The translations under genes were made by a program, and so were the position numbers. This document shows positions 19,111 through 38,736 of a stretch of DNA of 64,000 nucleotides, one piece after another. Every line of letters starts with the position of its first letter. Positions within the stretch are counted from its first letter, which is position 1. The DNA is from an uncultured Gammaproteobacteria bacterium (GTDB lineage: Bacteria > Patescibacteriota > Microgenomatia > Levybacterales > GWA1-39-11): NCBI GenBank assembly GCA_964450885.1, contig CAYVFE010000002.1, forward strand, positions 15,192 through 79,191, in the 5' to 3' direction. The notes beneath the pieces were generated by a model that did not search any database, was not told where the DNA came from, and saw nothing but the letters and a program-made list of their open reading frames with translations.

Positions 19111-19276
19111 CTATTATCACCTCCTTTTCGTGTTTTAGATTATCAATAAAAAATAAATTCGAAGATAAAAATATGTAAGATTTTAGATAGGAGAACTACT
19201 GTAACGAATAAAAAATAATCTGTCAAGTTTTGAACAGAATCAACATCCTTTATAGATATTTACTGGTATCCTAGCG

Positions 19277-27708: not shown

Positions 27709-27790
27709 GCCGAGGTGGTGAAATTGGTATACACGCAGCCTTGAGGTGGCTGTGCCGCAAGGTGTGCAGGTTCAAGTCCTGTCCTCGGCA
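27709..27790 (+). tRNA. tRNA-Leu (anticodon GAG)
   Basis: GCCGAGGTGGTGAAATTGGTA...CAGCCTTGAGGTGGCTG...GGTTCAAGTCCTGTCCTCGGCA. Long variable arm. ORF-track CDS 27746..28999 overextends across it. Confidence 0.7.
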
Positions 27791-27883
27791 CCTAGTAAAA
27801 GCTTAGGCTTAGCATTTCGGCCAGATGAAACATCAGGCCTCAATTTGACAGCCTGCATTTACTTTTTCAAAATGCTAAAGCAT

Positions 27884-27988
27884 TTTGACTGTCGTAAATT
27901 CGATAGAATTTACGAAATAAGGAGGATGAGGATAAATGTTGAAGATCCGATCTATCGGATCGAAAACGATATCCTGCATCCGACGCTT
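27884..27988 (+). repeat. tRNA-leader structured element, copy A (immediately 5' of tRNA-Val TAC)
   Basis: Hairpin CGTAAATTC/GAATTTACG, conserved core AAATAAGGAGGATGAGGATAAATGTTGAAG, hairpin ATCCGAT-ct-ATCGGAT, conserved tail CGAAAACGATATCCTGCATCCGACGC. See finding. Confidence 0.6.
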
Positions 27989-28062
27989 GGACGATTAGCT
28001 CAGCTGGCTAGAGCACCTCGTTTACACCGAGGGTGTCGGGGGTTCAAATCCCTCATCGTCCA
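27989..28062 (+). tRNA. tRNA-Val (anticodon TAC)
   Basis: GGACGATTAGCTCAGCTGGCTAGAGCACCTCGTTTACACCGAGGGTGTCGGGGGTTCAAATCCCTCATCGTCCA. Confidence 0.75.
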
Positions 28063-28066
28063 CTGG

Positions 28067-28999
28067 ATGCTTATAGTTACAGGAACAGTTGCATATGACT
28101 ACATCATGGACTTTCCTGAGAGTTTTTCGGATCATATTCTTCCAGACAGCCTTCATAAGATAAACCTTTCATTTATAGTAGATAGATTCGAAAAAAGACG
28201 TGGAGGAACCGCAGGGAATGCGTCATATTCACTAGGTTTACTTAAGATCCCGCATAAATTAGTCTCATTTGCCGGCAAAGACTTTGATGACTACGCAAAA
28301 ACCTTCAAAAAATTAAAAATCGATATCTCGAAAATCAACATCGACAAGAAAAACTATACGGCGACAGGTTTTGCTATGACTGACAAATCGGATAACCAGA
28401 TATGGGGGTATTTTTATGGGGCAGCAATTAATTCCTCGAAGACAAACCTGAGCTTTGCAGACCCGGAAAAAGACCTCGTGCTGGTAGGTCCCAGTGGTGC
28501 AAGAGGATCTATGGCTACTGTAAATGAATGCATAAAGTATAAGATCCCCTATATGCTGGACCCTGGATTCATCTTGACCGAGGTTAGTGCTTACGATCTT
28601 ACAAAAGCTGTCAAAAACTCTACCTATGTGATAGGTAATGATTATGAAATTGAGCTTATTTCAAATAGAGTCAAAGGCTGGGAAAAGATAAAGAGAAAAA
28701 AGACTGTGATAAAGACTCTTGGAAAAGACGGCGCAGAGATAGAAGAGGATGGTAAAACGATAAAAATAGAACCCTCAAAAGCAAAAAGGGCAGTAGACCC
28801 CACCGGAGCGGGTGACGCGTGGAGATCGGGGTTTCTGGCAGGGTTACACATGAATTTAGACCTCAGAACTGCAGGCAGGATGGGAGCAGTTGCAGCATCT
28901 TTTGCGGTAGAGCACTATGGAACACAAGAACATAGATATTCTATAGCAGAATTCAAAAAACGGTATAGAAAAAACTATAATGAAGTGTTAAACTTTTGA
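28067..28999 (+). CDS. PfkB-family carbohydrate/nucleoside kinase (probable adenosine kinase)
   Basis: C-terminal PfkB signature DPTGAGDAWRSGFLAG. Start trimmed to Met 28067 (MLIVTGTVAYDY), downstream of the two tRNAs. Directly followed by ahcY, suggesting adenosine salvage. Confidence 0.65.
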   Translation: MLIVTGTVAYDYIMDFPESFSDHILPDSLHKINLSFIVDRFEKRRGGTAGNASYSLGLLKIPHKLVSFAGKDFDDYAKTFKKLKIDISKINIDKKNYTATGFAMTDKSDNQIWGYFYGAAINSSKTNLSFADPEKDLVLVGPSGARGSMATVNECIKYKIPYMLDPGFILTEVSAYDLTKAVKNSTYVIGNDYEIELISNRVKGWEKIKRKKTVIKTLGKDGAEIEEDGKTIKIEPSKAKRAVDPTGAGDAWRSGFLAGLHMNLDLRTAGRMGAVAASFAVEHYGTQEHRYSIAEFKKRYRKNYNEVLNF

Positions 29000-29002
29000 C
29001 TT

Positions 29003-30274
29003 ATGGCGACGGGAAAAGACTACGATGTAAAGGATCTAAAGCTTGCTGAGAGTGGAAAATTAAAAATAGAATGGTCAGAACAACAGATGCCGGTCCTGCG
29101 ATCGATATCCGAAAGATACGCGAAAGAAAAACCTCTAAAAGGACTTACCATCGCAGCTTGTCTCCACATAACCTCAGAAACAGCAAACCTGCTTATAACA
29201 CTTAAAAAAGGTGGCGCAAAGGTTGTCGCCACTGCCTCAAACCCACTTTCTACCCAAGACAATGTAGCAGCAGCACTCGTGAAGCACTATGGAATATCAA
29301 CCTATGCGATAAAAGGAGAAAATAGTAAGTCTTATTATTCACATTTGAACTCAGCGTTAGATAGCAGACCACAAATCACTATGGATGATGGAGCAGATCT
29401 AGTCCATCTCCTACATACAAAAAGACAGGATCAGCTCAACGGGATCTTAGGATCCTCAGAGGAAACAACGACAGGAGTTATCAGACTCAAGGCTATGGAA
29501 AAAGATGGAGCACTAAAGCTCCCTGTCATCGCGGTAAATGATTCGGACACGAAGCATCTTTTTGACAACCGTTATGGAACTGGCCAGTCGACCATAGATG
29601 GCATAATAAGAGCTACAAATATCCTTCTCGCCGGTAAAACCTTTGTCGTCTGTGGATATGGCTGGTGCAGTAGGGGAATTGCTATGCGTGCAAAAGGAAT
29701 GGGCGCTCACGTCATAGTGACGGAGGTCGATCCGGTCCGCGCGCTGGAAGCTGCTATGGATGGATTTATGGTCATGAGGATCAAAGAAGCTGTCAAAAAT
29801 GGAGATATCTTCGTAAGCGCAACGGGCGACAAGCACGTGATAACCGTAGACCATGTAAATAACATGAGGGATGGTGCGATCATCGCAAATTCCGGTCATT
29901 TTGATGTCGAGATAGATATGGCAGGGATAGAAAAGGAGAAAAAGAGCAAAAGAAGGATCCGAAATTCACTGGACGAATATGTCCTCAAAAACGGTAAAAA
30001 ACTTTATATCCTGGGTGAGGGTAGACTGGTCAATCTCGCAGCAGCTGAGGGTCATCCTGCAGAGGTTATGGATATGTCGTTCGCGAATCAGGCATTTGCC
30101 GCAGAATACTTTATCAAGAATAAAGGAAAGCTTGAGAACAAAGTATATGTGTTACCAAAAGAACTCGACAAAAAAGTCGCCAGTATCAAGTTAAAAGCCA
30201 TGGGAATATCCATAGACACGTTGACGAAAGAGCAATCGACCTACCTCTCCTCATGGAACGAAGGCACGCAATAG
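29003..30274 (+). CDS. ahcY: Adenosylhomocysteinase (S-adenosyl-L-homocysteine hydrolase)
   Basis: 423 aa. NAD-binding [11 protein letters not shown], and AhcY-conserved regions throughout. Confidence 0.9.
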
Positions 30275-30350
30275 TTCTTCTTGCAATAAAAATCGCACAG
30301 TGAAATAATATTCTAAGTATCTGTAATTTACGGAAGGAGGTGAATAAAAC

Positions 30351-30761
30351 ATGATGGACGTAAATTGGATCGCAATTATTATCGCTGCTATTGTCTACAA
30401 TGCCATAGGATTCTTCTGGTACTCTGACTCTCTTTTTGGAAAAATGTGGAGAGCCGAATCAGGCATGACAAAAGACAAAATCACAGAGGGATCAAAGAAT
30501 ATGGGTCGGATGTTCGTATTCATGGCAGTAGGATCTATAATCATGGCATATGTTCTCTCCGTAGTCTTTTCTGTATTTGAGGCAAATACGCTTTCTGCGG
30601 GTCTAACAGGAGCTTTTTGGCTTTGGCTGGGATTTGTAGCAACTATAATGTTAAATAGCGTAACTTACGAGATGAAATCCTGGCGTTATTATTTTATAAA
30701 TGCTGGTTATCAGCTCGTTGGGATTCTTGCTATGGGAGCAGTTCTTGTGCTTTGGGTATAA
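30351..30761 (+). CDS. Hypothetical 4-TM membrane protein (DUF1761-like)
   Basis: 136 aa, hydrophobic. SD AAGGAGGTGAATAAAACATG. Confidence 0.4.
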   Translation: MMDVNWIAIIIAAIVYNAIGFFWYSDSLFGKMWRAESGMTKDKITEGSKNMGRMFVFMAVGSIIMAYVLSVVFSVFEANTLSAGLTGAFWLWLGFVATIMLNSVTYEMKSWRYYFINAGYQLVGILAMGAVLVLWV

Positions 30762-30841
30762 AAGCGATTTGAACCCAAGAAAACAATTCCGCTGATGCGG
30801 ATTGTTTTCTTTTTTTAAATTCTCAAATTTGACTAACAAAC

Positions 30842-31129
30842 CTACGCTATCATCAATGATATTAGCGCAATAAGTCCTAATGATTCCCAATAGTTGATCT
30901 CCCTAAAGCCAAATACGAGTGGTACTATATTATTCCACAAAGCCTTGAACCAGAAATTTAAGACGGGAATAAGAATAAGTGCGATAGCATAGACTGCTAT
31001 GAATTCACCGAATGAACCGATCGGCTCAGTAGGCAACAGATATGGATCAGCAACCATCCCGAACAGAAGAACAGCAAGAATGGAAATCGCAACCAGCGGT
31101 TTGTTGACCTTTTTTTCTTTAGTGGCCAT
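30842..31129 (-). CDS. Hypothetical small membrane protein
   Basis: 95 aa, 3 predicted TM helices. Confidence 0.3.
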   Translation of the reverse strand: MATKEKKVNKPLVAISILAVLLFGMVADPYLLPTEPIGSFGEFIAVYAIALILIPVLNFWFKALWNNIVPLVFGFREINYWESLGLIALISLMIA

Positions 31130-31159
31130 ATAATATCACCTCCCTCTAGATTTAAACTG

Positions 31160-31231
31160 AGCGGGAGACGGGATTTGAACCCGCGACCTCCTCGTTGGCA
31201 ACGAGGCGCTCTACCACTGAGCTACTCCCGC
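31160..31231 (-). tRNA. tRNA-Gly (anticodon GCC)
   Basis: Reverse complement GCGGGAGTAGCTCAGTGGTAGAGCGCCTCGTTGCCAACGAGGAGGTCGCGGGTTCAAATCCCGTCTCCCGCT. Confidence 0.75.
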
Positions 31232-31330
31232 AGCGTCGGAACGCAGAATGATGCTTTCGATCTGTTTAAAATCAGATCTTCAGCTTTCATTCTCTTCCTC
31301 CTTATTTCAAAACTCTAAAGAGTTTTGACA
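31232..31330 (-). repeat. tRNA-leader structured element, copy D (5' of tRNA-Gly on the minus strand)
   Basis: Minus-strand sense: TGTCAAAACTCT-tt-AGAGTTTTGAAATAAGGAGGAAGAGAATGAAAGCTGAAGATCTG-attttaaa-CAGATCGAAAGCATCATTCTGCGTTCCGACGCT then the tRNA. Confidence 0.6.
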
Positions 31331-31511
31331 AATTGCTGCGCAATTTATGTATTTTAATTTTTAAAAGACCTTTTATCTTCCTTATTTAGACTCCGCTATA
31401 CGTAATCGGCAGTAATCTCGCAAAGCGAGATTAAGTTGCGAAAAAGCCGACATGATGAATGAAGTCAGGTGTTCCACCTGACGAAATGTGAATGTCGTGA
31501 CTTTTTCGCTG

Positions 31512-31584
31512 TGCCGAGACCAGGAATCGAACCCGGATAACGTGTTCTTCAGACACGCGCCTTGACCAACTTGGCAATCTCGGC
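31512..31584 (-). tRNA. tRNA (anticodon GAA, Phe) - assignment tentative
   Basis: Reverse complement GCCGAGATTGCCAAGTTGGTCAAGGCGCGTGTCTGAAGAACACGTTATCCGGGTTCGATTCCTGGTCTCGGCA. 73 nt, T-loop GGTTCGATTCC. Unusual D-arm. Confidence 0.5.
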
Positions 31585-31683
31585 TCGTCGGAATGCAGGA
31601 TAGCGTTTTCGAATTTAGCTAAAACTAAATTCTTCAACATTCATCCTCATCCTCCTTACTTCAAAATACTTAGTATTTTGACA
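31585..31683 (-). repeat. tRNA-leader structured element, copy C (5' of the tRNA at 31512-31584 on the minus strand)
   Basis: Minus-strand sense: TGTCAAAATACT-aa-GTATTTTGAAGTAAGGAGGATGAGGATGAATGTTGAAGAATTTAG-tttta-gCTAAATTCGAAAACGCTATCCTGCATTCCGACGAG then the tRNA. Confidence 0.6.
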
Positions 31684-31856
31684 ATTAACTTGTTAAATTG
31701 CAAAGCAATTTTTCTCTAAAAAAGTAATTCCGTTTCAGCGAAATTAAGTTGCGAAGCAGCAAGCCAGAAAGCGAAAATCCGATCTAGTCGGATTGGAACG
31801 TCAAGGCTTTGACTGATTCGTATGTAGTATAGTGAATTTTCAGGCAAAACTCAATA

Positions 31857-32171
31857 TTAAGAAAGTTTTCTAGCTCTTCTATAATGGAAGGCAAAAAGCG
31901 CAGATCCTACCACGAGGAATGTAATTGAGCTTGATATATCAGTAACTTCTTTAACCTTTCTTTCACGCGAAAGCTCTTCTAGACATTTATCTTGAGGCTG
32001 AGGGTAGCTGCAGCGTCCTGCTTCATAAGGCAAATAGTAGTTATCCAGAAACACCTTTCTGACTCCGTAGTCAGACAATTTGAATACGCCTATTATGAGA
32101 AGAATTATCCCTATGGCTGAAAAGACATAAAAGTATGCAGTTCTTATAGAATGGCCCAAATTAGTTGCCAT
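31857..32171 (-). CDS. Hypothetical small membrane protein
   Basis: 104 aa, two TM helices and a Cys-containing loop. Confidence 0.3.
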   Translation of the reverse strand: MATNLGHSIRTAYFYVFSAIGIILLIIGVFKLSDYGVRKVFLDNYYLPYEAGRCSYPQPQDKCLEELSRERKVKEVTDISSSITFLVVGSALFAFHYRRARKLS

Positions 32172-32226
32172 AACTAAATAATAGTAAAAATTGCCAAAAT
32201 ATACAAACTTTCTGTCGAAAATCGTT

Positions 32227-32308
32227 GTGCCCGGGAGAGGATTTGAACCTCCACATCCATGGGATACAGCGTTCTGAACACTGCGCGTCTACCATTTCGC
32301 CACCCGGG
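32227..32308 (-). tRNA. tRNA-Leu (anticodon CAG)
   Basis: Reverse complement GCCCGGGTGGCGAAATGGTAGACGCGCAGTGTTCAGAACGCTG-long variable arm-GGTTCAAATCCTCTCCCGGGCA. Confidence 0.7.
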
Positions 32309-32443
32309 CATAAAAATCAGTTAACTTTTTTAATTTTACCTCATTTTGACTTTAGAATAAACCAAATATCTGTATTACTAATTTATAGTTTGATTACCTT
32401 AAATACCTTGACACCAAAACGTGAAAATGGCAGGATGTAGGAT

Positions 32444-33037
32444 ATGGGTAGGAAAATCATTTTAACCGGTGCTTATTTCTTTAGCTCACTAGTACTACTT
32501 CTAATACTCACAGCAGCGCTGCTTTCGACGCTTTTTAGCTCAAATGAGCTACACAAGACACTAATCTACGATAGTGATGTTCAAAAACCCAAATATCAGG
32601 CATTACCCGAAAAGGTCAAAGAAGTTACTACAACTGCTACGACAGAAGATGGCAGGGTAGGAGCACTTGAAAGATTTTTTGCTGGTTACGAGTCGCCACT
32701 TGAACCACATGCTCAGCTAATTGTCGATGAAGCTGATAAGTATGGCATGGACTATAGACTGGTTCCAGCTATCGCAATGAAGGAGAGCACGCTTTGTCAT
32801 AAGATAATCAAAAATACACACAACTGCTGGGGATACGGGATATATGGAGACAAAGTAACTTACTTTGATAACTACGAAGAGGGAATCCGTACGGTCTCCA
32901 AAGGTCTGGGAGAAAGATATATCGGGATCGGACTCGTCGATCCATATGAAATTATGACTAAGTATAATCCAGTAAGTACTGGTTCGTGGGCCGAAACTGT
33001 CACTTTTGTGATGGAAAAGATATCCACACGTCTATAA
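32444..33037 (+). CDS. Membrane-anchored putative peptidoglycan hydrolase-like protein (glucosaminidase/GH73-like fold), paralog 1
   Basis: N-terminal TM. Region LERFFAGYESPLEPHAQLIVDEADKYGMDYRLVPAIAMKESTLC resembles the ESxxG-containing helix of FlgJ/GH73-type muramidases. Paralogous to 33238..33801. Low certainty. Confidence 0.35.
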   Translation: MGRKIILTGAYFFSSLVLLLILTAALLSTLFSSNELHKTLIYDSDVQKPKYQALPEKVKEVTTTATTEDGRVGALERFFAGYESPLEPHAQLIVDEADKYGMDYRLVPAIAMKESTLCHKIIKNTHNCWGYGIYGDKVTYFDNYEEGIRTVSKGLGERYIGIGLVDPYEIMTKYNPVSTGSWAETVTFVMEKISTRL

Positions 33038-33237
33038 TTAGCCTCAAAACTGGCCCAACAGCCTGTAGTTTTACCCCTTGACAAACCCATAGTTACTGCT
33101 ATAATACGCATTAGGTCCTAAGGTAGCCCAAAACTACTTTAGGATTTTTTTATGGTTTGACTATAGTAATTCTATAGATAAGCCTCTTCTATATTTTCCC
33201 CAAAGTTTTAGTAATCATCAATCTGCCTTTTGACGGA

Positions 33238-33801
33238 TTGAAAGTTACAAAAACTATGAAAAGAATACTTATAACAGTCGTGATAATTATTATTACGGCC
33301 CTAGTATTGCCACAAAATGCAATGGCTTTTGAGAAGCAACAAACAGCTTCTGCGAGGCTTGCTATAACTATTGAAAACGAAAAGTCTGACGATATACGTG
33401 TGCAGGCTTTAGAGAACATCTTTGCAAAATACAATTCACCACTTGCAGGAGAGGGTAAATCGTATGTTGAACTTGCCGATAAGAACGGCGTTGACTGGAA
33501 GTTACTTCCGTCTATCGCAGGGCTTGAGTCATCTTTTGGTAAGCGCCTGATGCCTAATTCATATAACGCGTATGGGTGGGGTGGAGGACACATTTACTTT
33601 GACTCATGGTCGGATGGAATTGACACTATCACAAAGTCTCTTAAGACACGCTACTATGCACGTGGGGCGGATACAGTGTGGACGATCGGTCCTATATATG
33701 CTGAGTCTCCAACATGGGCTGTACGCGTAAACTCTTTTATGGAGAAAATCGAGAAAGAATACGTCGATCTGCTTCGCAATGAAGTAGTGATGACTATCTA
33801 A
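33238..33801 (+). CDS. Paralog 2 of the putative peptidoglycan hydrolase-like protein
   Basis: LENIFAKYNSPLAGEGKSYVELADKNGVDWKLLPSIAGLESSFG ... YGWGGG parallels 32444..33037. Confidence 0.35.
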   Translation: MKVTKTMKRILITVVIIIITALVLPQNAMAFEKQQTASARLAITIENEKSDDIRVQALENIFAKYNSPLAGEGKSYVELADKNGVDWKLLPSIAGLESSFGKRLMPNSYNAYGWGGGHIYFDSWSDGIDTITKSLKTRYYARGADTVWTIGPIYAESPTWAVRVNSFMEKIEKEYVDLLRNEVVMTI

Positions 33802-33848
33802 TTTGTTGATTGGAAAAACTGAGCGTTTTCATAGTATAATTCACCTTA

Positions 33849-33929
33849 CGCCCGGGTGGTGAAATGGTAGACGCGCTGGTTTTAGGAACCAGTACCGAAA
33901 GGTGTGAAGGTTCAAGTCCTTTCCCGGGC
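33849..33929 (+). tRNA. tRNA-Leu (anticodon TAG)
   Basis: GCCCGGGTGGTGAAATGGTAGACGCGCTGGTTTTAGGAACCAG-long arm-GAAGGTTCAAGTCCTTTCCCGGGCA. Confidence 0.7.
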
Positions 33930-33930
33930 A

Positions 33931-34027
33931 CTACGTCGGAATGCAGGATAGCGCTTTCAATCCGATAAATCGGATTTTCAGCCTTAATCCTCATCCTCCT
34001 TACTTCAAAAAGCTGATGCTTTTTGAC
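33931..34027 (-). repeat. tRNA-leader structured element, copy E - inverted, abutting the 3' end of tRNA-Leu(TAG)
   Basis: Minus-strand sense: TGTCAAAAAGC-atca-GCTTTTTGAAGTAAGGAGGATGAGGATTAAGGCTGAAAATCCGAT-tt-ATCGGATTGAAAGCGCTATCCTGCATTCCGACGTA. Same architecture as copies A-D but not followed by a tRNA on its own strand. Confidence 0.55.
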
Positions 34028-34102
34028 AGAAAAATATAACATTAGAGCTCTTAGGAAAAAGTCTAACTTTACAAACCTAACCTCAAACACTATAATATCC
34101 AA

Positions 34103-34987
34103 ATGGCAAAAGACACGAAAACAACCAAACAAAAAAGCCCTGCTGCAAAACAAGAGCAGAAAAAAGAACTCGTGCGCCGCGATGACGGCACTATCGAATT
34201 AAATATTACGGTTCCTGCTGCAACAGTCCAAAAGGAAAGAGGCAAGATCGAAGACGCACTAGTCAAAGGCATAGAGCTTCCTGGTTTTAGAAAGGGAATG
34301 GCACCAAGAGATCTAGCGTTAAAAAAAATCTCTGAGGAAAAAATCCGCGAAGAGCTGCTTCGTGAAGTAATTACAAATGAATATAGAAAAGCAGTTGAAA
34401 AGCACAAACTTCAACCTGTTATAAATCCACAGATACATATCGAGGCATTCGAGAATGGTCAGGATTTGCAGTTTACTGCAGAAATTGCCGAAGAACCCAA
34501 GGTTGAATTAGGTGATTACAAAAAAGCCATAAAAGATGTCAGCGCAAAAGGAAAGATCGTCACAGAGAAAGGCAAAGAGCCGCAGAAACCGTCAATCGAT
34601 GCTGTGATTGCCGCCGGAATGTCTCAGGTAACCGTCAAAATCCCCAACGTAATCATCGAACGCGAGGTCAGCAGACTATTATCCCAAGTAATTGATGAAG
34701 TAAAACAGCTAGGCATGACTCTGGAAAACTATCTTGATTCAAAAAAGATCTCTGTAGAACAGCTGAGAGAAGAGTACAAGAATAGGGCGGAAAGAGACAT
34801 AAAACTTGAATTCTTCTTGAGAAAAGTCGCTGATGAAGAAAAGATAACGGTCACAGCAGACGATATTACTGCTGCTATCGCAAAAATTGAGGACAAGGAT
34901 CAACAGGAAGAAATCAAGAAAAATCCATACCTTGTGGCAAGTATCATAAGACAACAAAAAACTATTGATTTCTTGACTCAAATTTGA
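34103..34987 (+). CDS. tig: Trigger factor (short form, apparently lacking the PPIase domain)
   Basis: Ribosome-binding signature LPGFRKGMAPRDL (TF GFRxGxxP motif), then a TF C-terminal-like arm. Only 294 aa. Confidence 0.6.
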   Translation: MAKDTKTTKQKSPAAKQEQKKELVRRDDGTIELNITVPAATVQKERGKIEDALVKGIELPGFRKGMAPRDLALKKISEEKIREELLREVITNEYRKAVEKHKLQPVINPQIHIEAFENGQDLQFTAEIAEEPKVELGDYKKAIKDVSAKGKIVTEKGKEPQKPSIDAVIAAGMSQVTVKIPNVIIEREVSRLLSQVIDEVKQLGMTLENYLDSKKISVEQLREEYKNRAERDIKLEFFLRKVADEEKITVTADDITAAIAKIEDKDQQEEIKKNPYLVASIIRQQKTIDFLTQI

Positions 34988-35019: not shown

Positions 35020-35631
35020 ATGAAATCCAACGCCAACATAATAGGCTCAAGCCTTACAGAGGCAGGAGAAGGTCTATCACAAGGCCTTAAGAGTCTATTT
35101 GAACAAACTCACAAAACAGCTACCGGACAGCTGAGCGAAGCACGAAAAGATGCTCAATCCCAGGTATTTGGACTTGAAAAAGACCTAAAAGAAGGAGATG
35201 AGATGGATCTATCGGGAAGTGAGGCAGAAACAAAAAAACCTATCAGCGCTGAGCACCAATCATACTTTAGAGAAATCATTTCTACCCCGACAAGAGCGGA
35301 ACACGAAGACCGGGCTCAGCTAAAGGTACAGATTGAGGAAATACGAATCGAAATAAAAAAGTTAAAGGATGCATCAGCAGAGATGGAGATAGTCTTTAAA
35401 GAGGTCTCTACCCAGCAGACTCCTGAAAAACCTGGCAAATATCACCTCAATTTTTATGAGTGGGTATTTCTGACTATCCAGAATGCAAGACAAAGGATGG
35501 AAGAAGTAAATACACTGGGATCAATGGTAAGCAATAGGAAGAAAGAAAAACAGTATCTTGCGATGAGCAAGAAGCACGGAACGAGCTTCTCACTAAATAA
35601 TGAGCGCGCGATAGCACGACAGTCAGGCTGA
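35020..35631 (+). CDS. Hypothetical coiled-coil protein
   Basis: 203 aa, charged, no recognisable motif. Confidence 0.35.
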   Translation: MKSNANIIGSSLTEAGEGLSQGLKSLFEQTHKTATGQLSEARKDAQSQVFGLEKDLKEGDEMDLSGSEAETKKPISAEHQSYFREIISTPTRAEHEDRAQLKVQIEEIRIEIKKLKDASAEMEIVFKEVSTQQTPEKPGKYHLNFYEWVFLTIQNARQRMEEVNTLGSMVSNRKKEKQYLAMSKKHGTSFSLNNERAIARQSG

Positions 35632-35691
35632 TAAATTTTTCATTCTCAATTCTCCTTTATTAGTTTTTTTTTCGTGGGAAAAATAGGTAGA

Positions 35692-35775
35692 GGAGACGGA
35701 TTTGATGTATTGGGGCCGCGAAAATTCGCGAGCGTTTCGTGATGTGCACGACCCTTTTATCAAAATCCGTCTCCG
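35692..35775. repeat. Large inverted repeat GGAGACGGATTTTGAT...ATCAAAATCCGTCTCC enclosing an inner CGCGAAaaTTCGCG palindrome, at the left edge of the GC-rich island
   Basis: 15-16 bp arms read directly from the sequence, about 50-nt spacer. Lies 3' of the minus-strand ORF 35799..36275. Confidence 0.5.
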
Positions 35776-35798
35776 CATCTTTGCGAAATCAGTCGCCC

Positions 35799-36275
35799 TT
35801 AGGCGAGTGCGTAACCATGCCCGCGTCGGTACGAGCGTTCCCTGCGGTCCAGACGGGCCTTCCTGCGCTTGTTGCGCGAGTTCTCAGTCCTGTTGTGGAC
35901 CAGATGATTGAGGGCGGTAACCCTCACAGCCTTGCTGCCAAGCGTGGTGCGTGTCTCGATGACGAGAATGCCGGGTTCGTGCACGAATGCACCTGAACGG
36001 GACTGCGGCTTGCGCAACCTGACGATCTTGTACGCCACGAGCGGTTCGTTTCCCTCGAGAGGGAAGAGCGACAGTGCGACCATCTGGTCGTTGACTGGGC
36101 GCTCCCATACCGTCAGGTCCACACGGACACGATGGACTTCCCAGTTGCCCTCCTGAGCGGGTACCACCTCATAGGTGATGCCGTCCCCGAATATCTTCGG
36201 CAGGATGCCCCCTTCGACGACCGCCGAAAGGTTGTTGATGGCAACGGGAAGATCCGTAAATGGCCTCTTTGCCAT
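35799..36275 (-). CDS. Hypothetical 158-aa protein with an Arg/Lys-rich C-terminal tail, encoded in a compositionally foreign (GC-rich) island
   Basis: Good SD (GGAGGTGTAGAAAATGGC). Non-repetitive, beta-rich-looking sequence ending ...NRTENSRNKRRKARLDRRERSYRRGHGYALA. Other-frame ORFs in this block look like GC-driven noise. Confidence 0.4.
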   Translation of the reverse strand: MAKRPFTDLPVAINNLSAVVEGGILPKIFGDGITYEVVPAQEGNWEVHRVRVDLTVWERPVNDQMVALSLFPLEGNEPLVAYKIVRLRKPQSRSGAFVHEPGILVIETRTTLGSKAVRVTALNHLVHNRTENSRNKRRKARLDRRERSYRRGHGYALA

Positions 36276-36540
36276 TTTCTACACCTCCAGGTGTACTGAA
36301 CTCTGGCGTTGACGATAGGATGGTGCGCCATGCGGCGCAGGGTCTTTCTGACCGGAAAGTTGATGATTGATGTCTTTTATTCCCGGAGAGTTTTTTGCCG
36401 GGAAAACCAATATCCCAATAACACCTCTTTCTTTTGGGGCTGGATTTGTTTGGTTCCCCAATTCTGAGTATATAGTCTATACCCAGAGTAGGAGAACCAA
36501 ATAATAATTTCGCAAAGATTTTAATGTGCAAAAAGACAAT

Positions 36541-36575
36541 AAAAAAACTCCCCGTGCATTTTGGGGAGTTGTTCG
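36541..36575 (-). terminator. Rho-independent terminator (minus-strand sense AACTCCCC-aaaatgcac-GGGGAGTTTTTTTATTG) upstream of the island promoter region
   Basis: 7-bp GC-rich stem plus a U7 run on the minus strand. Would insulate the island gene from read-in. Confidence 0.5.
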
Positions 36576-36715
36576 ATTGGTCTTTTAATTATTCGACAAA
36601 TAACTCCCCCTACGCCCCAAGGACGAAACGGAAAGTATTTTTAATCGAATAATTGCAAACCATAACGCAATGTTAGCAAACGAAATGACCGCCGTCAAGA
36701 CCTTTATGCTGGATA

Positions 36716-36868
36716 TTGACATACATTTTAATGAGTGTTATTCTACATTTAATGAACACGATACTTTCTCACAAGCTGTCACTTAGCGCTCTTCTGGAGC
36801 TTGAGTAACCGCTTGGGAGGAAAGTACTGATTTTCTTATAAACCTCCCACTAGGGGAGGTTTTTTTTG
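36716..36868 (+). promoter_or_regulatory. Candidate promoter (TTGACA-17-TATTCT) plus attenuator-type leader for the small-ORF cassette
   Basis: -35 TTGACA at 36716 and -10 TATTCT 17 nt later. The leader contains CTTGGGAGG (segment 1), CCTCCCAC (segment 2), GGGGAGG plus T7 (segment 3), forming mutually exclusive antiterminator (1:2) and terminator (2:3) helices. Segment 3 doubles as the SD of ORF 36874. Confidence 0.45.
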
Positions 36869-36873
36869 TGGTT

Positions 36874-37101
36874 ATGGAAAGAAATAATTATATACCTGAA
36901 GACCAAATCTCGCATTACGATGCGATGGGTAATCCTGTAGCAAAGCCTGAGTGGAGAGCGCAATACAGAAAATCAGCAGAAACATTTGTCGTAAACGAAA
37001 TCGTAGACAGGCAAATCAGCGAAATATTGGAGGGCGAATTCATAATTAATCCTACAGTAGACACTCAGATAGAAGAGATTATGAAAGAAGCAGATTTTTA
37101 G
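36874..37101 (+). CDS. Small acidic hypothetical protein (75 aa), first of three
   Basis: ATG 36874 (the track lists GTG 36868). MERNNYIPEDQISHYDAMGNPVAKPEWRAQYRK... Confidence 0.4.
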   Translation: MERNNYIPEDQISHYDAMGNPVAKPEWRAQYRKSAETFVVNEIVDRQISEILEGEFIINPTVDTQIEEIMKEADF

Positions 37102-37117
37102 AAGGAGGTGATAATTT

Positions 37118-37375
37118 ATGGAAAGTAGAGAAACGGGTCCAATTTTTAATCTACAAGCCAGTGAAACAAGAGGGGGTGGATATAAGGCCTTGGAAGTGGA
37201 GGCGATAGAAAATAGCGTCTCAAGATATAACTTAGAAAAAGAACGGGAACAGAGGATGGAAGAAGCGGGTTATGATCCCAGGATCTTGGCTACACGTGCA
37301 GAAATGGAATATAGAGGGTTTGAGATGCAACAAAGCGCAGAATATCCAGTTGGAGAGAGCGCCCAGAATATATAA
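37118..37375 (+). CDS. Small acidic hypothetical protein (85 aa), second of three
   Basis: Preceded by AGGAGGTGATAATTTATGGAA, identical to the initiation region of the third ORF. Confidence 0.4.
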   Translation: MESRETGPIFNLQASETRGGGYKALEVEAIENSVSRYNLEKEREQRMEEAGYDPRILATRAEMEYRGFEMQQSAEYPVGESAQNI

Positions 37376-37488
37376 TATTGACAGACACTGCCGGCAGTGT
37401 TAAATTAGTCATTAATGAAAACAGGCTTGATAGTAAATAGTTATTGGTTTAGCTTCCGCTAACGCGGAGGTATTAACCTGTTTTAAAT

Positions 37489-37526
37489 TACCTTCGCAGA
37501 CTCAAAAGAGTCGGGGCGGAGGTTTT
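37489..37526 (+). terminator. Intrinsic terminator/attenuator hairpin (CCTTCGC...GCGGAGG plus T7) in the leader of the third small ORF
   Basis: Upstream alternative hairpin CTTCCGC-taac-GCGGAGG (37452-37470) can compete, giving an attenuator-like arrangement. Confidence 0.4.
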
Positions 37527-37551
37527 TTTATTTGAGAGGAGGTGATAATTT

Positions 37552-37821
37552 ATGGAACAAAGATTAACCGGGCTAGCTTGGATAACGAAAACGAAGGAAG
37601 TATATGATTCTATCCCTGGAGGTTCGAACTACCTGATAGACCCTTGCGAGATAAATATGGAACTTGTCAGAGAGAAGTGTGAGAACTGGACTGGCGAGGA
37701 ATGCGCTCTGGGCGTAGTTATGAAAGAAGGAATAGCGTATTGTCCGCTTCAAGAACAAAAACAAATTACTCTTAGAAATAGTTTTGGCTCTAACGAAGCC
37801 CCAACCCAAGATACTGCTTAG
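37552..37821 (+). CDS. Small Cys-containing hypothetical protein (89 aa), third of three
   Basis: MEQRLTGLAWITKTKEVYDSIPGGSNYLIDPCEINMELVREKCENWTGEECALGVVMKEGIAYCPLQ... with four Cys. SD AGGAGGTGATAATTTATGGAA. Confidence 0.4.
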   Translation: MEQRLTGLAWITKTKEVYDSIPGGSNYLIDPCEINMELVREKCENWTGEECALGVVMKEGIAYCPLQEQKQITLRNSFGSNEAPTQDTA

Positions 37822-37870
37822 CTTCATTGTCTAGGTTATTTTATTCTGGTAAAATACGAATGCTTTAAAA

Positions 37871-37969
37871 GTCAAAAAGCATCAGCTTTTTGAAGCAAGG
37901 AGGATGAGGATAAATGTTGAAGAATTTATCTCTGGTAAATTCGAAAACGATATCCTGCATCCGACGCAA
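37871..37969 (+). repeat. tRNA-leader structured element, copy B (5' of tRNA-Val GAC)
   Basis: GTCAAAAAGC-atca-GCTTTTTGAAGCAAGGAGGATGAGGATAAATGTTGAAGAATTTA-tctctgg-TAAATTCGAAAACGATATCCTGCATCCGACGCAAG then the tRNA. Confidence 0.6.
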
Positions 37970-38043
37970 GGACGGTTAGCTCAGTTGGTTAGAGCGTCGC
38001 ATTGACATTGCGGAGGCCACTGGTTCGAATCCAGTATCGTCCA
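37970..38043 (+). tRNA. tRNA-Val (anticodon GAC)
   Basis: GGACGGTTAGCTCAGTTGGTTAGAGCGTCGCATTGACATTGCGGAGGCCACTGGTTCGAATCCAGTATCGTCCA. Confidence 0.75.
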
Positions 38044-38100
38044 CTAAAGCAGTCTGAGCGTCGTGCCCCAAGGGCACTTGCCGACACTCGGTGGCGCATA

Positions 38101-38141
38101 CACATTGCGGAGGCCATAGGCATCGATCCAGTATCGTCCAC
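38101..38141 (+). pseudogene. Degenerate duplicate of the 3' half of tRNA-Val(GAC)
   Basis: CACATTGCGGAGGCCATAGGCATCGATCCAGTATCGTCCAC versus the tRNA's GACATTGCGGAGGCCACTGGTTCGAATCCAGTATCGTCCAC. T-loop destroyed, acceptor 3' strand identical. Confidence 0.5.
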
Positions 38142-38163
38142 AAGTGTTTGATATACTAGAATC

Positions 38164-38736
38164 ATGACCCGAGATGGCGCATATCAAACACTCACCGTAT
38201 ACGTACAGTCCCAAAACCTCATAAGGCATCACCTAGCTACAGAGGTTGCAATGCGCTCACTTGCGCAGCACTTATCAAAATCAAAGAATCAACTACTGGA
38301 CATAGAGAAGTGGGGAATAACAGGCCTATTACATGATGCTGACTATGAACTGACAAGAAAGACTCCAGAAAAGCACACCTTGTATCTTGAGGAAAAGCTC
38401 GGAGAGCAAATCCCGAAAGACATAATGTATGCTATAAAGGCGCATAACTATGCTTACACTAAAATCGAACCAACGAGTCTCATGGATTGGGCGCTTTATA
38501 CATGTGATGAGCTGACAGGATTTATAGTTGCTTGCACACTCGTCCTCACGGATAAAAAAATCAAGAGTCTATCTACCGATTTCGTACTAAATAAGATGAA
38601 TGATAATGCATTCGCAAAAAGCGTGAACCGTGAACAGATAAAACTTTGCGAGAAAAGTCTGGGAATTCCTCTTTCCGAGTTCATTATGATAGTCCTTAGC
38701 TCAATGCAGGCTATTGATACTACGCTTGGACTTTAG
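38164..38736 (+). CDS. HD-domain phosphohydrolase
   Basis: HD motif region (ITGLLHDADYE) and additional His/Asp residues. 190 aa. Confidence 0.55.
   Translation: MTRDGAYQTLTVYVQSQNLIRHHLATEVAMRSLAQHLSKSKNQLLDIEKWGITGLLHDADYELTRKTPEKHTLYLEEKLGEQIPKDIMYAIKAHNYAYTKIEPTSLMDWALYTCDELTGFIVACTLVLTDKKIKSLSTDFVLNKMNDNAFAKSVNREQIKLCEKSLGIPLSEFIMIVLSSMQAIDTTLGL

Follow-up and report, generated by a model that had tools for sequence, protein, structure and literature searches.

Three candidate transcription attenuators with predicted leaderless leader peptides in a four-gene orphan module of a 64-kb bacterial DNA stretch

The stretch analysed here spans 64,000 nucleotides (64 kb; hereafter the window) of contig CAYVFE010000002.1, and its segment 35690–37830 probably holds one lineage-restricted, conserved module, whose four orphan genes are divided among three transcription units. 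Unit A drives a GC-rich gene on the minus strand, unit B drives the small open reading frames ORF1 and ORF2 on the plus strand, and unit C drives ORF3 on the plus strand; the three units lie within 1.2 kb. The leaders of these units are very likely conditional terminators of some kind. More specifically, and with a good deal less assurance, sequence comparison and folding models favour ribosome-mediated transcription attenuators, in which a leaderless leader peptide (a mini-ORF of 15–18 codons) controls the downstream orphan genes. An earlier note on this DNA had proposed attenuator-type leaders ahead of ORF1 and ORF3, and the promoter, the alternative pairings and the T-run are indeed conserved in relatives with compensatory changes; it overlooked the leaderless mini-ORFs, the placement of their stop codons and the third, minus-strand unit. 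Relative loci were taken from the contigs of protein matches and comprise the group L001–L010, then L011, L012 and L013, and finally L014, which represent three further lineages. The elements of the leaders are as follows.

36670..36698, minus strand: promoter PA, TTGACG-17-(TGc)TAACAT, facing the GC-rich gene and conserved in L014, L011 and L002
36610..36663, minus strand: mini-ORF A, MVCNYSIKNTFRFVLGA and stop codon, with its ATG 6 nt past the -10, predicted leaderless
36538..36570, minus strand: terminator A, ACTCCCC-N9-GGGGAGT followed by T7, with the GC-rich gene about 250 nt further on
36716..36744, plus strand: promoter P1, TTGACA-17-(TGt)TATTCT
36752..36808, plus strand: mini-ORF B, MNTILSHKLSLSALLELE and stop codon, with its ATG 7 nt past the -10, predicted leaderless, Leu-rich
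36813–36821, plus strand: antiterminator arm B, CTTGGGAGG
36813..36870, plus strand: element containing terminator B, a hairpin at 36840–36862 followed by T8, whose 3' arm GGGAGG is the candidate Shine–Dalgarno sequence (SD) of ORF1
37378..37406, plus strand: promoter P2, TTGACA-17-(TGt)TAAATT
37415..37462, plus strand: mini-ORF C, MKTGLIVNSYWFSFR and stop codon, predicted leaderless, with an aromatic, Phe-rich C-terminal half
37452–37470, plus strand: hairpin 1:2 of unit C, in which region 2 (GCGGAGG) copies the terminator 3' arm
37489–37526, plus strand: terminator C, a bulged stem followed by T7, the element ending at 37533

The most constant property of the leaders is the geometry of promoter, mini-ORF and terminator. 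Eleven leader copies were compared, namely units A and B from four lineages and unit C from three. All eleven carry a -35 of TTGACA/G, a 17-nt spacer and a TGn-extended -10, with an ATG 6–8 nt further on at which the 15–18-codon mini-ORF opens. Because transcripts should start about that ATG, the mini-ORFs are predicted to be leaderless. The promoter TTGACA-17-TATTCT that the earlier note had placed ahead of ORF1 at 36716 was recovered by a consensus scan. Furthermore, the stop codon of the mini-ORF lies 0–7 nt upstream of the antiterminator arm in every copy, directly adjoining GGGGGAG in unit A. This arm, region 2, resembles the 3' arm of the terminator in each unit: GGGGGAG versus GGGGAG in unit A, TTGGGAGG versus GGGAGG in unit B, and GCGGAGG versus GGCGGAGG in unit C. 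Being a near-copy of the terminator 3' arm, region 2 can therefore pair with the terminator 5' arm. The predicted peptides are listed below.

Mini-ORF A: MVCNYSIKNTFRFVLGA in the window, MVCNYSIKNMFRFGLVA in L014, MVCNLSIKFTYHFGRMVA in L011, MVGNLSIKFTCYFGRIMA in L002
Mini-ORF B: MNTILSHKLSLSALLELE in the window, MNKILSHKLLLSALLGL in L014, MSRNLLLTLNLLLLGEA in L011, MSRNFLLTLNLLLLGEA in L002
Mini-ORF C: MKTGLIVNSYWFSFR in the window, MQQTKLFNNFYFTSR in L011, MQQAKLFINFFFTFA in L002

Start-site statistics across the window make leaderless initiation credible for this genome. Of 32 strong promoter matches, 11 have their first ATG 6–9 nt past the -10, including those of tig (34103) and the DUF5665 gene (38750). 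A leaderless-type start is found in about 19 of the 63 ORFs of at least 120 amino acids (aa), and an SD match of at least 5 nt in only about 10. Ordinary genes with an ATG 6–9 nt past a good -10 begin, for example, at 34103, 35020, 38750, 6322 (minus), 14611, 24189 and 47197; their -10 is often TATAAT, their -35 is spaced 16–18 nt away, and strong SDs are rare in the window. Many ordinary genes of the window are thus probably leaderless, as judged from promoter and start positions.

Folding supports a shared architecture. All six leaders folded (units A–C of the window and of L002) form a long 5' hairpin that contains the mini-ORF, followed by the terminator and its U-run; in the long hairpin the mini-ORF makes up the 5' arm and apex, and the 3' arm lies past the stop codon. 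The fold z-scores range from -5.0 to -7.5, and none of 200 shuffles was equally stable. The competing hairpins ascribed to the ORF3 leader, 37452–37470 and 37489–37526 with its T7 run, are both present in minimum-free-energy folds whose z-scores are -5.0 and -5.6. For the ORF1 leader, a terminator and antiterminator had been described, and the hairpin is present at 36840–36862 with a T-run of 8 nt rather than the 7 first given. Between lineages, the basal helix of unit A changes from AATTATTCGA/TCGAATAATT to AATTACTCAA/TTGAGTAATT and AATCTCTCAAT/ATTGAGAGATT; pairs changed on both sides number four in the long helix of unit A and four in unit C. In unit B, the sequences of helices 1:2 and 2:3 differ between two sublineages and their pairing is kept; these sublineages could not be aligned by MAFFT, leaving RNAalifold uninformative for this unit. 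A scan of the window for such units returned only this cluster and detected A and B, unit C being missed because of its bulged stem. The unit C covariance model matches unit B only at E = 0.5–0.8, so that paralogy of the leaders is not demonstrable.

The predicted elements suggest the following sequence of events. Transcription would start at the A of the mini-ORF ATG. With no ribosome loaded, the long 1:2 hairpin would form and then the 3:4 terminator, and transcription would stop at the U-run. A ribosome translating smoothly to the stop codon would cover region 2, and the terminator would again form. A ribosome stalled within the mini-ORF would occupy region 1, leaving region 2 to pair with region 3, no terminator would form and the downstream genes would be transcribed. 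In unit B, such a stall would also free the ORF1 SD: the 3' arm of terminator B lies 7 nt before the ORF1 GTG, and termination and ORF1 initiation are therefore coupled in the model. Masking of the SD is plausible in unit B, with GGGAGG 7 nt before the GTG; the SDs of units A and C are separate from their terminators. The ORF1–ORF2 operon probably also ends at terminator C; since read-through from P1 gives mini-ORF C an internal AUG without an SD, termination is the expected default there.

This switching was simulated by treating the ribosome as an unpaired block that spans -15 to +13 relative to each A-site codon. Under full-length equilibrium folding, four of the six leaders lose at least part of the terminator at mid-ORF ribosome positions, and the other two are taken up below. 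As this result was ambiguous, the model needs a kinetic, co-transcriptional competition, and the equilibrium simulation was replaced by a co-transcriptional proxy with shuffle controls, in which the transcript was folded up to the terminator loop (before region 4) and the pairing of the terminator 5' arm was scored. In the proxy, the terminator 5' arm is mostly free without a ribosome and with a ribosome on the last one to three codons or the stop, and it is sequestered (0.6–1.0) with a ribosome anywhere earlier in the mini-ORF. The switch score is positive in all 11 leaders; when the upstream part of each is dinucleotide-shuffled 100 times, 0–5 of the shuffles attain it. Sequestration is greatest on the N-F-Y/F-F codons in the L011 and L002 copies of unit C. 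The modelled behaviour matches trp-type logic.

The amino acids that such leaders might sense can be read from their composition, compared here with the window's own proteome. Mini-ORF B has 6–8 Leu in 17–18 residues (P = 8e-5 to 5e-3), and mini-ORF C has 2–5 Phe, or 4–5 aromatic residues, in 15 (P = 0.15 to 4e-4 for Phe). Unit B would then respond to scarce charged tRNA-Leu, and unit C to scarce charged tRNA-Phe or charged aromatic tRNAs in general. The sole hint that links the targets to these amino acids is that ORF1 and ORF2 are poor in Leu (one in 75 residues, P = 0.005, and two to four, respectively) and that ORF3 is poor in Phe, each of its three lineages having just one. Leu sensing by unit B and Phe or aromatic sensing by unit C is accordingly put forward as a tentative assignment, somewhat less probable than its converse. 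In the simulation, a stall at almost any internal codon predicts read-through, and the modelled units may instead be general sensors of translation slowdown. Separately, three genes for tRNA-Leu (gag, cag, tag) and one for tRNA-Phe(gaa) are located at 27709–33931, 3–9 kb left of the leaders, which may be coincidence.

Several observations weigh against attenuation by a translating ribosome. Full-length equilibrium folding keeps the terminator at every ribosome position in unit B of the window and unit A of L002. Mini-ORF A has no significant codon enrichment, and the Leu-richness of mini-ORF B may be partly due to pyrimidine-rich arms that pair with GGGAGG. The peptide sequences are loosely conserved between lineages, and with three to four lineages in total the covariation statistics are weak. 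Nearly every classical attenuator acts on genes tied to amino-acid metabolism, and the genes regulated here have no such tie. Transcript starts, mini-ORF translation and termination are all predicted from sequence, and the probable assignment to the candidate phyla radiation (CPR)/Patescibacteria is based on DUF5660 and DUF5665 and the groups in which these families occur.

Some of these points would suit a switch that needs no ribosome. The leaders could be conditional terminators answering a protein (perhaps a product of the module), a small RNA (sRNA) or a metabolite, or the leaders of about 120 nt could be sRNAs acting in trans, the mini-ORFs being incidental in either case. Highly structured leaders with strong terminators could let terminated products accumulate, attenuator-derived trans-acting sRNAs are known (rnTrpL, PMC6614838), peptide conservation is poor, and mini-ORF A lacks an enriched codon. 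However, such a switch would not require an ATG at the predicted start together with a stop codon abutting the antiterminator arm, which is the arrangement of all 11 leaders, and leaderless translation appears common in the window. Nor does Rfam offer a candidate: at the gathering threshold it returns only tRNAs in the window, and at E up to 10 over 35500–38300 it returns no riboswitch, T-box or protein-binding leader model. Weak sub-threshold matches to Phe_leader (RF01859) coincide exactly with two of the units, at 28.5 bits on unit B and 18.6 on unit A against a gathering threshold of 55, and speak for leader-peptide attenuation. As the Rfam matches are at chance level, the riboswitch, T-box and known-leader explanations were dropped. 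On balance, a ribosome-independent switch or sRNA is unlikely, and ribosome-mediated attenuation is kept as the preferred reading.

The genes controlled by the three leaders, and the RNA elements beside the GC-rich gene, are the following.

36874–37101 (75 aa from ATG) or 36868–37101 (77 aa from GTG), plus strand: ORF1, acidic, starting MERN
37118–37375, plus strand: ORF2, 85 aa, acidic, starting MESR; 37103..37375 with its SD AGGAGGTGAT included
37552–37821, plus strand: ORF3, 89 aa, acidic, starting MEQR; 37537..37821 with its SD AGGAGGTGAT included
35799–36275, minus strand: GC-rich gene, 158 aa, isoelectric point (pI) 10.5, GC content at third codon positions (GC3) 0.74, SD GGAGG 9 nt upstream of the ATG
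36452..36498, minus strand: conserved long hairpin in the 5' untranslated region between terminator A and the GC-rich gene, with compensatory changes, e.g., T-A to C-G and G-C to A-T
35692..35774, minus strand: conserved compound hairpin GGAGACGGATTTGAT...ATCAAATCCGTCTCC directly 3' of the GC-rich gene stop, with a 15-bp closing helix

The three acidic ORFs, of 75, 85 and 89 aa, were found as the earlier note had described them, and they are real genes as judged by a coding-like substitution pattern and in-frame indels. The proportion of nonsynonymous differences (pN, Nei–Gojobori) is 0.10–0.29 against 0.47–0.83 for synonymous ones (pS), and the corresponding rate ratio (dN/dS) is 0.07–0.15 where dS is unsaturated. 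Conserved residues run throughout the alignments, and a gap of some 20 codons in the L011 ORF1 keeps the reading frame; conservation at the amino-acid level, whose failure the note had named as grounds for refutation, thus holds. The three proteins have pIs of 4.3–4.6, and the four Cys residues of ORF3, already noticed, are invariant among its relatives. For ORF1, the use of the terminator 3' arm as SD is plausible, and the start is probably GTG 36868 rather than the ATG 36874 first assumed: the GTG lies 7 nt from the GGAGG of that arm and the ATG 13 nt, and the GTG is kept in L011 and L014.

ORF2 and ORF3 share an identical 21-nt initiation region, AGGAGGTGATAATTTATGGAA, present in exactly two copies (37103 and 37537) and matched by none of 100 shuffles; relatives retain the motif ahead of both genes. 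The identity had been taken as a sign of duplication, and this did not hold. The proteins are unrelated, BLASTP giving no alignment or E = 1.9 and hhalign probabilities of at most 0.5%, so that ORF1–3 as paralogues were rejected. The same SD layout, AGGAGGTGAT-N5-ATG with a spacer of five A/T-rich bases, also precedes small ORFs at 19126 (minus) and 13148 (minus), and 31143 (minus) carries GGGAGGTGAT. In its perfect form the layout is limited to small ORFs of 46–89 aa (13148 and 19126 on the minus strand, 37103 and 37537). Judged from its distribution, the shared 21-mer is best explained by its being this genome's optimal ribosome-binding site.

The GC-rich segment had been regarded as an acquired island. 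All related contigs that extend this far carry it at the same position, and comparison of sequences identifies it as a conserved protein gene belonging to the module. Gene callers set ORFs on opposite strands of the segment in near-identical relatives, for which reason a structured non-coding RNA was considered; this was ruled out, as the minus-strand protein aligns across lineages with pN below pS. The protein shows 34–36% identity across lineages with invariant positions throughout, and dN/dS is about 0.35. GC3 is 0.68–0.74 in three lineages versus 0.36–0.42 in neighbouring genes, and synonymous sites differ by 36–69% between those three lineages; the high GC3 seems to be actively maintained. 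The compound hairpin behind the stop codon is about 80% identical to its relatives, the coding DNA beside it being unaligned by blastn, and is probably the 3' end or terminator of the gene. The protein ends in an invariant YALA, and in a further relative in YSLA; this Y(A/S)LA tail resembles an ssrA-type degron, and no transfer-messenger RNA gene is available for comparison within the window.

In agreement with the earlier note, no family was found for any of the four proteins in Pfam, NCBIfam, PHROGs, PADLOC or PDB sequences. PDB profile searches gave nothing useful, and the AlphaFold models of ORF3 and the GC-rich protein were poor (predicted local distance difference test 45 and 53, respectively), with an uninformative Foldseek search. 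Relatives of the small ORFs are scarce, numbering only one to three per ORF in a set of 5.8 billion clustered proteins, and an exhaustive HMMER search of 1.84 billion representatives found only two true relatives of the GC-rich protein; its other matches were short, fell on Big_13/DUF7507 repeat proteins and were treated as uninformative. Scans of genome contigs for more relatives gave no match, and a metagenome scan returned solely a contig already in the set. It is speculation that the basic protein and the three acidic ones, under like control, could interact.

The charges bring up the possibility, also raised in the earlier note, of a toxin/antitoxin-like or a defence or anti-defence cassette of mobile or phage origin, for instance a basic toxin (pI 10.5) neutralised by divergently transcribed acidic proteins (pI 4.3–4.6). 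The atypical GC3 and fast evolution of the basic gene, the tRNA genes nearby and an incomplete copy of the 3' half of tRNA-Val would fit such an origin. Against it, searches of PADLOC, PHROGs, GenBank phages (tblastn) and IMG/VR gave no match, neither an integrase nor any other mobility gene is present, and the order tig–DUF5660–GC-rich segment–(ORF1)–ORF2–ORF3–tRNA-Val–HD–DUF5665 is common to all four lineages, which have diverged to synonymous saturation. Given this shared order among housekeeping genes, the module is therefore chromosomal and positionally conserved, with no recent insertion. Moreover, the tRNA fragment is confined to the lineage of the window and lies on the side of the tRNA that faces away from the module. 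A cassette of this kind is quite improbable. Least probable is that the mini-ORFs are themselves the functional products, small bioactive or membrane peptides ended by a hairpin and T-run with ORF1–3 expressed independently: a short leaderless ORF with a terminator does resemble a stand-alone small-protein gene, and the window and L014 have kept mini-ORF A well, with synonymous changes in 7 of the 10 sense codons that differ, but the peptides of 15–18 aa do not look like transmembrane segments and vary greatly from one lineage to another, the terminator arm is the sole promoter or SD element available to ORF1, and the duplicated arms (region 2 like region 4, region 1 like region 3) would have no role in a plain terminator.

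The relatives vary in gene content. The L001–L010 lineage is without ORF1 and keeps a five-codon remnant, ATGGAAAAAAGGAGGTGA; at L002 6937–6954 (also in L001 and L003–L010), the remnant ATG GAA AAA AGG AGG TGA bridges the ORF1 start and the ORF2 SD. With ORF1 reduced in this way, leader B would directly control ORF2 there. The flanking genes in the window are as follows.

Left neighbours: tig (trigger factor) and a DUF5660 protein
Right neighbours: tRNA-Val(gac), an HD-domain protein, a DUF5665 protein, a short threonyl-tRNA synthetase, initiation factor 3, L35 and L20

DUF5660 and DUF5665 are families that we take to point to a CPR/Patescibacteria genome, and from these matches the host is probably a CPR-type bacterium.

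Around the tRNA genes, a conserved element of about 100 nt lies directly 5' of tRNA-Val(gac), tRNA-Val(tac), tRNA-Phe and tRNA-Gly, and a fifth copy abuts tRNA-Leu(tag). The copies are positioned as follows.

37858–37969, plus strand: tRNA-upstream element
about 27880–27988, plus strand: tRNA-upstream element
about 31585–31700, minus strand: tRNA-upstream element
about 31232–31345, minus strand: tRNA-upstream element
33932–34045, minus strand: tRNA-upstream element

Each consists of hairpin 1, an invariant TAAGGAGGATGAGGATAAATGTTGAAGA, hairpin 2, TCGAAAACGATATCCTGCATCCGACGC and the tRNA, and both hairpins covary between copies. The element has no Rfam match, and L002 and L011 are without it ahead of tRNA-Val(gac). 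Its possible roles are those of an element of the tRNA 5' leader or of tRNA processing; alternatively, it may be a small mobile insert. Two of the copies form a 51-nt inverted repeat (33977–34027 and 37871–37921, 92% complementarity) that brackets the whole 3.8-kb tig–DUF5660–module segment and could permit its inversion. In addition, 38095–38141 repeats the 3' half of tRNA-Val (37998–38044) 97 nt downstream with 81% identity. This extra stretch is absent from L007, L009 and L013 and looks like an old integration/excision scar or a local duplication.

A wider interpretation is considerably more doubtful than the attenuators themselves: the module might be a "ribulon" that senses the charging of Leu- and Phe-tRNA in a genome-reduced CPR-type symbiont and runs a starvation or host-interaction response made of orphan proteins. 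CPR genomes generally lack most amino-acid biosynthesis, and in this interpretation tRNA supply would depend on amino acids scavenged from the host. The output would be three acidic small proteins, one with four Cys and possibly metal-binding, together with a basic protein with a degron-like tail and GC-rich codons that are atypical of the genome. If so, this would be a programme without a described counterpart, with attenuators acting on non-biosynthetic targets. If the attenuator model itself is right, the ribosome would be the amino-acid sensor in organisms without most amino-acid biosynthesis, and uncharacterised small proteins would offer a handle on how episymbionts might sense host nutrient supply. 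Gene regulation in CPR/Patescibacteria is little known, and leader-peptide attenuation or leaderless translation in Patescibacteria was not among the top full-text results of a literature search. Frequent leaderless starts would also matter for the annotation of genes and small ORFs (sORFs) in such genomes.

Among known systems, the closest in layout are the enterobacterial attenuators trpL, pheL, leuL, hisL, thrL and ilvL, which the present units resemble in all the structural features compared. Like them, the leaders described here have a promoter-proximal ORF of 15–18 codons (rich in one residue class in unit B and, less consistently, in unit C), four regions whose helices 1:2, 2:3 and 3:4 exclude one another, an intrinsic terminator just upstream of the first structural gene, and a stop codon placed so that a terminating ribosome would block the antiterminator. 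The L002 mini-ORF C, MQQAKLFINFFFTFA, resembles E. coli pheL. Compared with the enterobacterial leaders, however, the predicted leader peptide has no SD and starts at a 5'-terminal AUG, the targets are four orphan proteins rather than enzymes of amino-acid biosynthesis, the host is probably of CPR type, and the Phe_leader score falls far below its gathering threshold.

The leaderless polycysteine sORF attenuators of mycobacteria ("Cys ribulon", Canestrari et al., bioRxiv 10.1101/834739) share other features with the module as modelled here, namely a leaderless 5' sORF, stalling that senses charged tRNA with remodelling of the RNA, and several independent units. The mycobacterial switch is translational, acting by sequestration of the ribosome-binding site without an intrinsic terminator (bioRxiv 10.1101/834739), whereas the units here have a canonical terminator and U-run, with SD sequestration added only in unit B. 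The codons also differ, being Leu and Phe or aromatic rather than Cys, and the targets are non-metabolic. Leaderless sensory sORFs and classical terminator-based attenuation, previously separate, would thus be combined in the present units.

As in ermCL and the cat leader, a ribosome stalled on a short upstream ORF would open a downstream hairpin, and the response would report translation itself and not a specific metabolite; unlike in those systems, there is no downstream resistance gene, no known arrest motif was recognised and the mechanism would be terminator-based. Finally, as with Sinorhizobium rnTrpL/peTrpL (PMC6614838, PMC7298713), a terminated leader of about 110–120 nt could persist as an sRNA alongside the leader peptide, and this system is cited solely as a precedent for a possible second function.

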